A stretch of 64,000 bases of DNA from Hydrolagus affinis (GCA_012026655.1 JAAILG010000602.1:1-64000); one strand, 5' to 3'. Shown: positions 43,601-49,600, counted from the first letter of the stretch. The notes: a model not told the origin generated them from the sequence alone. Made by a program: numbers and translations.

Positions 43601-46600
43601 CTATGAATATTTGACCGAAAAATAAGCGCAAGCAGAAATCTTCCGTGCCATTCTTTGGATAAGATTCAGGACTGAGGTCCTGAATGCCCATTGAGGTGGA
43701 TGGTAAAGATCCCACAATACTATTTGAAGAGAAAGCAATTACTCCAGGTGTCCTGGCTGACAATCTCCAGATGAAATTTGGCATTCGCTTCATGGCTGCG
43801 TGTGGGATATTGCGGTTCTCAAATTGGCTGCCGACTTTGCCAACAAAATACACAGTGATTACACTCAACAATAAAATCCAATGAATTATTTTAAGATGTT
43901 TTGAAATGTGATAAGATGCTACATAATATGTAAGCATTGCTATTCTGTGACTGTGAATGATTAGGGCCAGATTTCTGCACCATTTCCATAAAATTTGTTA
44001 CATTCCAAATGAACACACTGTGAGAAATATTCAAAGCAATTACTTACTGATAATGCAAGCTCCAACCCCAATTCGTGCACAGTACTTTCAAGCTGACGCT
44101 CCAATTCGTTTGTAAGGTTTAAATCGTAAGGCGCCACCTGAGTGATCAAGGATATCACACATTTTCAATGTAAAAATACTAACCAAATCAATCAGAAACA
44201 TTTCAGAAAAAACTTCCGCAAATCAGAATAAACAATTGCAACATAAAAAAAATTGAGAAAAGCATTTCAACTGGACACTTTTCTGGCAAAATGCACATAT
44301 TCAGGTGCATCTCAATCAGCAACCAGAGGATAATTTGAAGGCAATCTGCACCACATCCAGCAAAACAATTTGCCTCATTGAAAGGTGCAGAGAACTGGAA
44401 GGTGGGTCTCTGGCAGGCTTGTCATTCTGCAGGAACGTCTTGTGTAAGATCACTCATTTCATATCCTCCCATTTACAAATTGTGGATCACGCCTCTATAA
44501 TCATACTAGCCCAAAGCTGTACTATGTTCAATTTTCCATAAGACAACTCACCTTTTCTATGTCTTTCTTCTTTGTGTGTCCAGTGAAAGCTTCAATGATC
44601 CCTAGATGGTAAAGCTGCCTGACTAATGACAGAGCACATGACTGTGCAGCCAGTTTCTTATTTGAACCATGTTCACGGGCACTGATTTCTTAAAGGGAAA
44701 AAAATAACATTAATTTCATGTTCCAGCACATTTCAGATTGATTTTTGCAGCCACTCATTTCTATTGGGTGCGCAATAGAGCAGCAGGTCAAAGACAGATA
44801 AAAACCCAATTCAAATCACCCCCAGAATGCTAATGTTGTTCTATTTTGCAATTCGCCCACAAATATACAGTCAATTCACTTTACAGTTTATTCTGTGAAG
44901 CACTTTGAGACATCTAGAAGACGTGAAAAGCACTATATCAAAATGCAAAAACTATTATTACACTGTACAGTTCGCTCATAATATGAATTGAAATAAGTGT
45001 CCACTAATGAACACTAATTGTTTATTAGACCAATGACCACCCATCCCTGAAAATGAAAGAATCAGAAGGCTACTACCTGCGCAGAATTGAAATTTTCTGT
45101 TTCACTCTCAAAGTTAATTATTTAAGCTACAAAATTATTTCCTTTGTTCAATATTCCTTATAAAGGAGCCTTATTTCAATTCCTTAAAGATTTCCTATTA
45201 CTTTCCATCTAGAATACCTGGGGATACCTGGGAAAAAAGTCAGCACTTACTTCTTCCCAGCTGTCTCACATGAAGTGTCATCTCTGCAATAAAACTCCTG
45301 TAATGACATGCACAATATCAAATTAACCATAATTTCAAGCTGCGTAACAATATAACACACAAGTAAAGAAATAATTGATTGAATTTGATTCAATTTTATT
45401 TACCAGTCATAAAACACACCACAAATGAACATAGTTAGAACCAACTTCTGAGGCACAAGTGTGGAAGACATGTAATACATTTGATATTAGTTTATTTTTG
45501 GTACACACAATATGAAAATATGTATTATTATGTATACAGGTTACAGGAACTCTGCATTTTCCGGAGAACCTTTATATCCCAATGTTTCAGGTATGAACAC
45601 TTTTTGCTTTCAAAGGAGTTAAGGTAAATAAAACTGCCCCGTTGGCTCACATCAATATATTTAAACATATTTTCATGCAATGTAGTATGAAATAAAATAA
45701 ATGCATGTTTTTCAACCCATTGTTCAGTAGTTGCACATGATAAAACAATGCACAGTCTTCTGGGTGGGAAAATGCTGAACATCCCTGGAACTAGATTCTC
45801 TTCACTGGACTGTTGCAAACAGATAGTGATCACAAACACAACATGGTGTGTGAAACACTGAAGCATACAAGCATCTTAAATTGTTTTTTACATGCATTTA
45901 CCAAAACAGAAGCTTTAGTCCTGTGGTTCTTAATTTGCGATAAATAAATTATCTGTTGAAAGGAATTTACTTTTGAATAGGTCATTCATTCCCAGAATCT
46001 AGCTCCGGATCTACACATTTCTCCGCAGTTACTGAACATTCTTCCTTTTATCTGTGTCGCTCGCTTCCATTTCTGTATTTGGTAAACTGACCTCAAGCAC
46101 AGCAACTTCACGATTCAGAGAAGCCTGCTTATAAGCCCATTATCCACCATTCTTGGATGCCAGTATGTTTCTCTGCCAAACTCAGTAAAGTTCCAATCTC
46201 CAGCAGCCCTAGGACCCCTAGAATACCTACAGGAAAAGTGACACCAGAAATCAACAGCTGTGTATACCTGCTTGTACCATCATTCCTATAATGGAAGGAT
46301 ACCATGTGACAGCTTAGTGCAGCCTAAGCAACATCACATGTTTGCAAACGAGATTTCTGGTGTCACCAAACATACACACATAACCTTCCAGTAAAGAGAT
46401 TAGAACGAGTGACAACCTTGCGTCACTTAGATTCAAGTCAATAAATATTCTTATGACTTGGTCAAATGATTGTAGCCTACATAAACAAGTGAAACTTTCT
46501 GAAATTAAAGGACATGTACTGTATTCAAGTACCTTTCCCTAATAACTAGAAGGCTTGAAAACCTTTAATCACACAGCTATCAAAGAAGTGTACATAGTTT

Positions 46601-49600
46601 TGTCTTCAAAAAGCAACTAAGAATTCTACATGCTAAAGTACCAAGATGCTCAAAATAATCAGGAGTTTTGGCAGTCGCAATTTACTACAGCTCGCATATA
46701 ATACAATCCACTCAGCGGACACATTGGTATTGGAGTCACATAGAATTGCAATTTTTTAGAAGTTACCAAGTTGTACTGTTGTGTACAAAAAGCAAGGACC
46801 AACAGAAATTCACCAATTAGCAGATGTCTACTGTATTATATTAAATGCTCTTAGCATTCATGGGGGTAGTGGATAATTACCCCGTTGAAAGCTCTATGTA
46901 TCAATGCAAGCTGGCTGAGAAATATACTGGCACCATAAGTGGAATATCCCCAAATAGCTCTTCAATAGAACAGATTTTTCCCCCCAAAACCTCTTCTTGG
47001 ATAATTTGTTCCATAAAGATAGTTTGTTTTTTAAAAAAAAGTTAGTCTTTTATTCAGACTTCCTTTCTTTGCAGTCGAGTTCAGTAATTTTTGCATCTGT
47101 GCCCATTTGGGGTTGAATATATAAGAATTAAAACTCCCAACACTTTTGATAGCCGTAAGGGCCAGCAGAACTCTCACGAATCCCCTTGCTTCAATGTTCA
47201 AAGCCAACTATAAAACCTGCAAAGAAAACATTCAAAGAAGTGATATGTACATTTGTCTAACTCCTCTTTCCTGCTTAAACTAACTAAATATAAAAATAAA
47301 GAGATTAGAATACAACCAATGCAAAAATGTTTTAACTACTAAACTAAAACACTTGCAAAACAATGAGGCTCTTCATTGAACTGATTGGATCAGTGTCAAC
47401 TGATAAAAGCCTGCAATTATTTTTGGCTTTAGATGTACTTGGCATTTCTATAATTCAAATGCACTAAATCATGACGATGGAATTAACCACTGTGTCAACT
47501 ATTCCAATAATTTAAATAATTTTAAACCAGTTTTCACAACAAAACATACACAAACAGTCGTATACTCAACAGTGAAATTTTAACAGTGAAAAATGTAGTT
47601 AAAATGGTATAATTTAGAATCCAGTAAAACGTTTTCCAATGTGGGAACAAGACACAGAAAATGAGAAAGATAGTTAACATGGGGCGGAGGGTAAATAGTA
47701 TGAAACTAATATCTGGTCATCGTCATGCGGAATGAAGCCTGTGTGAGAATGATTATGCAATTTCTCTAACTAACGATAGGCATAAACAACCAAGATATGC
47801 CAAACCTGTTATGGTCAGGTCCAACTTGTGCGTATTTATAATCTGCTTGAATCTTCTCTTTTTGGAAGTACTGGTTAAGTTGAGCTTTAGCATTTTCAAG
47901 GGTCCAGTTGCCATGAAGACCAGCATTTAAATCTAGGCCTTCCGATTCCAGGGTCTTTTTGAAACAAAAGAGGTAATTAACTACAGATATTCACCCAAAT
48001 ACACTTCACTGCTCACATTTTGAATGGGGAGAGAGAGACGCCATACATTTTTAATACAAAATGATATATATTATAGAGTGATTTTCACATTGGAAGGATA
48101 TCTCAAAAAGTGATAATTGAATCATAGAATCACTAGAATTTTTCAGCACAAAAGGAAGTCCATCAAATTGAATTGGGCCATTCGGCCCATCAATTGAAAT
48201 GCTTTATATGCAAATAGCTGGAGTCTTAACTTCAAACATTGCAAAGCTCTTGCATCCTGGTCGAGTTATTCATGCATGATGTGTGAGCACTATAAACTGC
48301 CTCACTCAGATTAGCAAAGTTTGATAGAGTAAACAATTCTTTATATAGTCCTCTCACTGAATATGGCAAAGCTATTTGAACAGGTTATGATAAGATTGTA
48401 TTTGTGAAGCCACTTACTGCTTGCGCTTCCTGTTCATCCCTTTTCTCATAATACTCCTTCAGGTTGGCTCCACGTTCCCAATAACCAGTGAATCCTCCTG
48501 CCTTGCCCATTCCAAATTCAGAGTCTGTATTGGAGAAATAGTTTTTTTCAAAAACTGATCAAAGAAGAACTGTTTTCAATCTCAGTAATGTATACAATCT
48601 TTTCCAACATTATCATGTTTCATGCAGGACATTCACCTAGTTTTCGGTTGGAAATAAAATTCTACGTGAATTTTCAATAACCAGTACTCAGTTCTCTTTA
48701 CGTATTGTTCAGTTGATAATAAAGACACTTGATTAAATAAAATTTGTCATTTACTCTCTCCTTACTGGAGGTGCTAAAATGGTAAATAAGCTCAGCAAAA
48801 AATTATTAAGTAAATCTAATGAAATGTTCATTTATTTCCTCCCCCATGCTTTTATTTATATACTCCCCATTCCTGAAATAGGCACAGTAGTTTTTAATTA
48901 CTAATGTAGAAAGTAGTCTCACCCGCTTCGCTAGCTATCTGTGGAGGATACGGTAAATTTGCTGGCAATGACCCCAGCACACCACCTTCTCCGCTCGCAT
49001 CAGCACCATCAACAGCGTCAGGTTGAACAGCCTGCAAAATTAAACAGATAGCAACAGAATTATTGCAACTACAATATATTTCTTTATGCACATACATGAG
49101 ATGAAAAGTTGAAAAACATTCAGAAGTCCATTACTTTCACTCCTGGCATACTTTTCCCAGTCTACTCCCTACTCAACATGAACAATACTCCCCTCCAGTT
49201 ACCAGCCATACATCTTTAGCTTGGCTCTATGTTCCTATGGGTGGCAAAACAAAAATGACAAAAATCCAGTCAATTCTGAGGAAATTGAAAATACCTTCTC
49301 AACCATCAAAGGCGGTTAGACATGCTCCACATGTCTACAATCGACAATAGATTGTTGCAAATCCTAACCTGTCTGAGATTGCAAATCCTAACCTGTCTGA
49401 GGCCATCAATTAAAGGCACAATTCTGTATTGAAGTGTGCAGCGAACTTCAATATTTGATTTTTGTCAGGATTGCAAATTTTAAAAAAAGTTGTTTAAAAT
49501 GCTTATTGTTAACCAGCAGTGATACTATTATGCTCCCTGAGTCAGAAGATTAAAAGGGTTCAGGCCACACCTCAGAACTTGGAATCATACAGCCTAAGCT

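Follow-up and report, generated by a model that had tools for sequence, protein, structure and literature searches.

Intron 6 of the DHX9 gene of Hydrolagus affinis (GCA_012026655.1 JAAILG010000602.1:1-64000; this whole stretch of 64,000 nucleotides is called the window below) contains a real and old poison exon, the counterpart of the mammalian exon 6A, accompanied by a predicted structure that is non-random, conserved and organized at two levels. The first level is a local stem (P3) that covers the candidate branch point, and the second is a long-range duplex (P1) between the upstream part of the intron and the interior of the exon. DHX9 is encoded on the (-) strand, where tblastn mapped 26 coding segments. 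Its exon 6 peptide finds human RNA helicase A among known structures (E 1.6e-25), and has 100% identity with a chimaera DHX9 and 94–98% with its shark and ray counterparts. Intron 6 spans 2508 nt, and the features that define the poison exon and its setting are the following (organisms B, C and D are relatives described below):

46226-46092, (-) strand: poison exon of 135 nt, counterpart of mammalian 6A, with AG/GT ends, donor-to-exon 7 reads and an in-frame stop.
46228-46227, (-) strand: acceptor AG of the poison exon; raw reads give a depth of 2 at 46224, falling to 0 at the sites listed in 46255-46333.
46117-46115, (-) strand: premature stop TGA, in frame after exon 6; no organism D difference among those listed.
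47954-47806, (-) strand: DHX9 exon 6, the upstream constitutive exon of 149 nt, encoding the linker and the start of the second double-stranded RNA-binding domain (dsRBD2); the 6/7 junction was found in 3 of 4 runs.
45297-45251, (-) strand: DHX9 exon 7, 47 nt; the junctions 6/7, 6A/7 and 7/8 were all seen in RNA.

The 6A/7 junction follows the TGA by 23 nt and the 7/8 junction by 70 nt, with about 20 junctions further on; the stop is thus more than 50 nt ahead of a later junction, the distance used to define exons of alternative splicing coupled to nonsense-mediated decay (AS-NMD). Both the exon, with its coordinates and AG/GT ends, and the position of the TGA 70 nt before the exon 7/8 junction had been proposed in an initial annotation made from the sequence, and both were recovered here unchanged. 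Its reading of the element as a poison exon gains support from the donor-to-exon 7 reads and from a 10-codon block common to mammalian 6A. A second in-frame AG is present at 46219-46218, 9 nt into the exon, and its use would reach the same TGA.

Use of the exon in RNA was assessed by comparing 4 of the 24 listed sequencing runs with 44540-48000, with a threshold of 3 reads for listing a junction. The run X21 consists of raw RNA reads of organism B, a very close relative (the DNA run of B shares 95% of words), of which about 27% was read, while the RNA status of the runs X11, X17 and X19 is a guess by software, and their contigs are spliced. X21 revealed 4 reads (3 starts) that join 46092 to exon 7, together with 6 reads for exon 6 to exon 7 and 16 for exon 7 to exon 8, and a depth of 2–5 at the listed exon positions. 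The apparent inclusion is thus 4/10 (95% interval 12–74%). The initial annotation had named two junctions by which the exon could be checked, and the downstream one is the junction found in these 4 raw reads, while the upstream one (47806 to 46226) was not listed at 3 or more reads, and because of this the acceptor is placed by the drop in coverage.

In organism C, a 194-nt contig covers 46026-46219 with 0 differences (depth 31, vs 81 for the skipping contig) and starts exactly at the A of the second AG (46219), which hints at an alternative acceptor, as if both acceptors were used. Another contig of the same organism is unspliced through 45980-46487, acceptor included. In organism D (run X19) a contig joins the exon to exon 7 via a donor about 27 nt downstream of 46092 and is unspliced at the acceptor, so in this organism the donor has shifted while the acceptor region is conserved. 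The C and D contigs suggest that the upstream intron is slow to splice, and they only suggest it because contigs are not single molecules. RNA coverage in B and C runs past the donor to about 45980-46026, and another GT is found at 46032-46031; this coverage reflects either retention or a further donor.

The relationship to the mammalian exon was revealed by the protein databases. A tail derived from the poison exon follows exon 6 in 6 of the best 120 of 213 DHX9 proteins, and with cluster members included, 20 of 31 sequences carry a 6A-derived tail, either short (6) or long (14). Among the short tails, 3 are nearest to primate, mouse or pangolin (98–100%), 1 is also primate-like and 2 are unplaced (~90%), while 13 of the 14 long tails are nearest to bats and 1 is unplaced. 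The same ten residues occur in all 14 long tails and are identical (10/10) to the translation of 46185-46156 in another frame. By inspection, the first residues of all 20 tails agree with the human 6A forward primers, and a motif that matches the human 6A reverse primer is present in the long tails, exactly in 13 and with one change in 1. The identical ten-residue core and the tail flanks that fit the human primers identify the exon as the counterpart of mammalian 6A: judged by homologous sequence and by its location in the same intron, it is the orthologue of mammalian DHX9 6A. From the flanking primer sites we infer that the ten-codon block is present in human 6A itself. Since the reading frames differ between the two lineages, the block can hardly be under protein selection. 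Whereas the primate-, mouse- and pangolin-like 6A translations (P0012, P0015) stop early, the bat-like ones (P0014, P0017) run on for 34 residues, owing either to a bat deletion near the exon start or to internal splicing of 6A.

Other searches added nothing to this set. A metagenome scan with the exon 6 peptide retained 2 loci of 388 candidates (L002; L003, 57% identity), and the ~465 nt of intron in L002, of which 420 were aligned, contain no recognisable match. The in-frame 54-aa open reading frame (ORF) of the exon found no match among longer proteins, the tail search returned nothing beyond 3 proteins already in hand, and a HMMER search with the 64-aa other-frame ORF against 1.84 billion representatives gave 1 match, to a tandem-repeat protein, which is spurious. 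Host contamination in viral and prokaryote contigs was looked for by pattern scans, with 0 matches.

Folding of the region upstream of the exon identified a compact set of helices (p denotes the predicted pairing probability):

46367-46352, (-) strand: 5' arm of the main stem P3, p 0.97–1.0 in every folding context; the match to organism D ends at 46368.
46252-46237, (-) strand: 3' arm of P3, which includes the beginning of the pyrimidine tract and, as candidate branch point, A 46251; no organism D difference listed.
46340-46303, (-) strand: hairpin H1 (8 bp + 6 bp), p 0.95–1.0.
46302-46274, (-) strand: hairpin H2, with a 4-bp core (p 0.65–0.73) and a weak outer helix (p 0.30–0.43).

The core of P3 is a perfect 15-bp inverted repeat (46366-46352 with 46252-46238), which an added G.U extends to 16 bp. 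A perfect inverted repeat of at least 15 bp, with any loop length, was found in 5 of 1000 dinucleotide shuffles of intron 6, and the fold of the 201-nt region (z = -3.74) was equalled in 0 of 200 shuffles. Whichever of the five sequence contexts was folded, P3 and H1 were predicted with p 0.95–1.0. TTGAT, inside the 3' arm of P3, is the only match to the yUnAy consensus in the 40 nt that precede the acceptor, and its A 46251 is a candidate branch point from this consensus match alone. Opening of the last 30 nt of the intron is predicted to cost 23.8 kcal/mol, vs 4.1–18.3 kcal/mol (mean 9.5, sd 3.2) at 26 constitutive acceptors of DHX9, which were chosen by a heuristic (a few may be misplaced). 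The 5' arm of P3 can also fold on itself (46374-46348, -3.9 kcal/mol), and it may do so briefly before transcription of the 3' arm is complete.

In this region the initial annotation had been accurate as to the perfect 15-bp stem ending 11 nt from the 3' splice junction, the best branch-point match in its 3' arm and hairpin H1. Of the two tandem G.U pairs that it placed in H1, one holds (p 0.95; C-G in relatives C and D) and the second is doubtful (p 0.26), while of its second hairpin the 4-bp core stands and the outer helix is poorly defined. The argument that it drew from the strand fails because the opposite, (+) strand folds at z = -4.55, vs -3.74. Two further helices, 46406-46395/46201-46190 and 46393-46385/46236-46228, appear in the longest fold only (p ~0.8; 0.0 in a shorter one) and are not claimed. 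The stem region has one match in the genome G000, where copy counts are lower bounds; since this region and the second conserved block described below are both single-copy there, an origin of the inverted repeat from a transposon was rejected. A known non-coding RNA family was rejected likewise, as intron 6 contains no Rfam match at the gathering score, and a single chance match (E = 7) was found in 45900-47100.

The second level of the structure, together with the second conserved block, had been missed by the initial annotation and is new here:

46935-46908, (-) strand: 5' arm of P1, 26 bp with A.C and A.A mismatches and two bulges; core p 0.82–0.99.
46185-46154, (-) strand: exon core, i.e. 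the P1 3' arm 46183-46154 and the overlapping 30-nt block 46185-46156; mammal-conserved codons, with no organism D difference listed in 46202-46141.
46937-46799, (-) strand: second conserved intronic block, matched by an organism D contig; single copy in G000.

Folding of 46960-46000 predicted P1 as a duplex of 26 bp between 46935-46908 and 46183-46154 (-35.3 kcal/mol), which encloses P3, and a 21-nt inverted repeat links 46912-46932 with the exon interior at 46158-46178. Of the 30-nt block conserved in mammals, 28 nt belong to the P1 3' arm. Among 4255 (-) strand tiles of the window, the best partner of this block is the P1 5' arm (-34.1 kcal/mol; the next -29.0), a value reached in 0 of 400 shuffles of the upstream intron (mean -21.3, sd 2.1); the query arm was picked by mammalian conservation, independently of the fold. 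A blind scan with the whole exon gave -38.0 kcal/mol vs -29.1 +/- 2.4 in shuffles, 0 of 36 being as good. A putative 'anti-stem', by which the upstream block would compete for the P3 5' arm (-12.8 kcal/mol), was rejected, as 249 of 300 shuffles were equal or better, and a 6-bp helix 46943-46938/46148-46143 is not claimed, its 5' arm falling just outside the D-matched block. About 110 nt of the second block are located outside the P1 arm, and the block has local hairpins at 46883-46863 (p 0.98) and 46860-46842 (p 0.74).

The conservation of both levels was assessed with organism D, a distant relative whose coding exons are 87–94% identical. Over the 293 nt of 46076-46368 a D contig has 20 differences (93% identity), vs 32 in 327 in the coding exons; its next 97 letters upstream are without fit, and the match thus ends 2 nt past the 5' arm of the 15-bp stem. 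Another D contig of 969 nt fits at 46799-46937 only (140 letters, 15 differences, 1 gap), so that this second block ends 2 nt past the P1 5' arm, with the contig flanks again without fit. Both arms of P1 and both arms of P3 fall in stretches matched in this one distant organism. The differences could be listed for 15 of 20 positions in the exon/stem block and for 2 of 15 in the second block; the listed ones leave the P3 3' arm and 46202-46141 unchanged. In H1 the U.G pair 46333/46310 is C-G in both C and D, and the other listed D change (46331) is unpaired; in H2 the U-A pair 46296/46283 has become G.U in D by changes on both sides. The candidate compensatory changes are one double change in H2 and one U.G to C-G change in H1, with none seen in P1 or P3 among the listed differences. 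The strong helices (p >=0.9, >=6 bp; 59 of 224 sites) contain 1 difference vs 3.95 expected (P 0.059), and 0 of their pairs are broken by the 15 listed D differences vs 2.7 expected (P ~0.045). Coming from one organism, the D comparison gives weak support to the structure.

On these grounds we consider it somewhat more probable than its opposite that the poison exon is gated by the nested predicted structure, with the acceptor closed by default. The exon would be included in a fraction of transcripts (its donor is observed, its acceptor deduced), and, judging from the stop position and the human data, the exon-containing transcripts would be destroyed by NMD. P3 is predicted to keep U2 snRNP and U2AF from loading, because it pairs the branch point and the beginning of the pyrimidine tract, and P1 to tie the conserved exon core to the intronic block about 730 nt upstream, the outcome being skipping or a lingering upstream intron. 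Inclusion would then need the opening of P3, and its predicted barrier of 20–24 kcal/mol would imply an active opener. The likeliest single opener would be a dsRNA-binding helicase that loads where a U-rich tail follows the stem on its 3' side. DHX9, a helicase with two dsRBDs that loads onto single-stranded 3' tails, may itself be the first candidate, a suggestion that we make tentatively; slow RNA polymerase II (Pol II) would give the opener time, and DHX9 in this role would close a negative feedback loop. Equally tentative is the possibility that DHX9 senses its own helicase activity on its own pre-mRNA, more activity leading to more inclusion and hence to less DHX9, in a circuit as old as jawed vertebrates.

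Several observations weigh against the gated exon or against the role of DHX9 in it. The region 46076-46368 is not significantly better conserved than the coding exons (Fisher P 0.19), and the 62-nt unchanged run reaches by itself only P 0.10. When all helices with p >0.5 are counted, neither the differences (P 0.34) nor the broken pairs (3, P 0.14) are significant. Covariation amounts to two informative pairs in one distant organism, and some of the unlisted differences, 5 in the exon/stem block and 13 in the second block, may fall in the 5' arm of P3 or of P1. A third hairpin (46272-46253) had to be rejected, with 3 pairs broken in D. The comparison of P3 and of the P1 5' arm covered cartilaginous fishes. 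Which nucleotides pair with the AG and with the last part of the pyrimidine tract depends on the folding context. As to RNA, the 47806 to 46226 junction is absent from those listed in the four runs, and the apparent inclusion of 4/10 is high for a tightly closed acceptor. Human 6A is repressed by hnRNPM and SRSF3, and the effect of slow Pol II on it is opposite to that at BRD2/BRD3, where slow elongation leads to skipping. Finally, neither the present data nor the papers searched contain evidence that ties DHX9 to its own splicing. Neither the structure, nor 6A in fishes or its deep conservation, nor an autoregulation of DHX9 is described in the literature searched, most subscription papers being outside reach; the accessible parts of the DHX9-inhibitor papers PMC11831107 and PMC12067447 say nothing on DHX9's own mRNA, and DHX9 is not named in the accessible supplements of PMC6547761 and PMC11632617 or in the main text of PMC10573301.

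The alternative that survives best keeps the gate and dispenses with DHX9, being a sub-case of the gated exon that competes only with the last step, the opening of P3. The structure would act as a timer that is read by Pol II speed together with hnRNPM, SRSF3, FUS and hnRNPK. Human 6A rises with UV, etoposide and DRB, as reported in the accessible part of PMC4741636, and on knockdown of SRSF1/3/10, hnRNPM and FUS (PMC7072589, accessible part), and the poison exons of BRD2 and BRD3 are set by structure and elongation rate, with a helicase not mentioned in the part of PMC10789245 at hand. The 16-bp stem (20–24 kcal/mol) would nevertheless form within about 130 nt of transcription and would be unlikely to open passively, and the siRNA library of the PMC7072589 screen comprised SR and hnRNP genes only. 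We regard a timer independent of DHX9 as rather unlikely.

It could also be argued that the structure enables the acceptor instead of closing it. Folding of 46367-46237 would bring the branch A 46392 (TTTAC), which matches the consensus 166 nt upstream of the acceptor, to about 36 effective nt, and would hide the seven AGs located within the folded region between this A and the acceptor; unwinding would then lower inclusion. Structure-shortened branch distances occur in yeast. The stem does not reach the final 10 nt of the intron, most of which the shortest fold leaves unpaired, and inclusion looks substantial (4 vs 6 reads). However, the D match does not reach beyond 46368 and so shows no conserved branch site further upstream, the D and C contigs are unspliced at the acceptor, and in the longer folds the tract and the AG are paired, all of which makes an enabling fold improbable. 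To a similar degree we doubt that the conservation serves protein-binding sites and splice signals, the complementarity being incidental or local to cartilaginous fishes. Nearly all paired positions are invariant and hence uninformative on pairing, which leaves the two informative pairs; yet two independent duplexes each exceed shuffles, each conserved block ends no more than 2 nt from a 5' arm, and the block conserved in mammals coincides with the P1 3' arm at 28 of its 30 nt. Mismatched-duplex geometry like that of P1 is typical of selective editing sites. Very unlikely is the remaining possibility that the duplexes are ADAR substrates, with P1 as an editing-complementary sequence and A-to-I changes in P1 or in the branch region altering exon use: P1 is a 26-bp intron-exon duplex with A.C and A.A mismatches, and DHX9 and ADAR2 have been linked in editing-splicing coordination (PMC5173168, accessible part), but the C contig 46026-46219 has 0 differences (a weak point, as minor variants are lost from contigs and the intronic arm is covered in D alone), and the exon differences listed for the raw reads include no A-to-G change (also weak, at depth 2–5).

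In human, exon 6A has been reported as an event that responds to stress in Ewing sarcoma cells, and the tracing of its core to cartilaginous fishes points to an old function in dosage control. The coincidence of the conserved core with one arm of P1 specifies the exact arms to mutate or to block. Should DHX9 be the opener, it would be a helicase that senses its own unwinding activity via splicing, and we found no such case described. If this is true, a compensatory up-regulation of DHX9 is expected under the helicase inhibitors now in development (PMC11831107, accessible part), and the arms would offer oligonucleotide targets to raise or lower DHX9 in disease.

Two features elsewhere in the window were observed in passing. 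The region 44850-44950 in intron 7 is a high-copy repeat fragment, to which thousands of reads from the runs of organisms B and C correspond. Five tRNA-like Rfam matches are probably heads of short interspersed elements (SINEs).

Among the known systems, the closest is human DHX9 6A itself (NR_033302; PMC4741636, PMC7072589). It carries a premature termination codon (PTC), is UPF1-sensitive and rises with slow Pol II, and the isoform that contains it is stabilised on UPF1 knockdown (PMC4741636, accessible part); it is repressed by hnRNPM and SRSF3 (PMC7072589, accessible part). The present exon is like it in being a PTC-containing exon, probably a cassette, in the same intron after the same exon 6 end, and shares the 10-codon core with the bat 6A tails, which fit the human primers on both sides. 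It is unlike it in that the human exon starts with GTGG and has the stop UAA, whereas the present one starts with GTAT and has the stop TGA, and the 3' halves differ; also, the control published for the human exon, as far as the available text goes, consists of Pol II speed and SR/hnRNP proteins, and the terms branch point, autoregulation and feedback are absent from the accessible part of PMC7072589.

The poison exons BRD2 exon 3b and BRD3 exon 5b (PMC10789245, accessible part) are similar in that conserved complementary regions around the exon tune unproductive splicing. The arms of P1 and of P3 agree with such pairs of conserved complementary regions (PCCR) in being stronger than chance and conserved (in one distant organism). 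In BRD2 the arms, one in each flanking intron, loop the exon out, whereas P3 is confined to the upstream intron and P1 joins intron and exon, so that neither has arms in both flanking introns; moreover, in the part of PMC10789245 at hand slow Pol II favours skipping for both genes, whereas it favours inclusion of human 6A. A precedent for the proposed opener is provided by Drosophila MLE, the DHX9 orthologue, which resolves an RNA structure that hides splice sites in para (PMC5173168, accessible part) and prefers tandem stem-loops and U/A-rich RNA (PMC7528653, accessible part). Unlike the circuit proposed here, MLE on para and roX acts on the RNAs of other genes, with no self-regulation and no poison exon. 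Structure-based self-sensors are also familiar: ADAR2 edits its own acceptor, Drosha cleaves DGCR8 hairpins and METTL16 reads MAT2A hairpins. In each of them, as in the gated exon, an RNA element is read by an RNA enzyme for feedback on its pathway; those three are proven and rely on covalent chemistry, whereas the reading that we propose for DHX9 would be made by unwinding.

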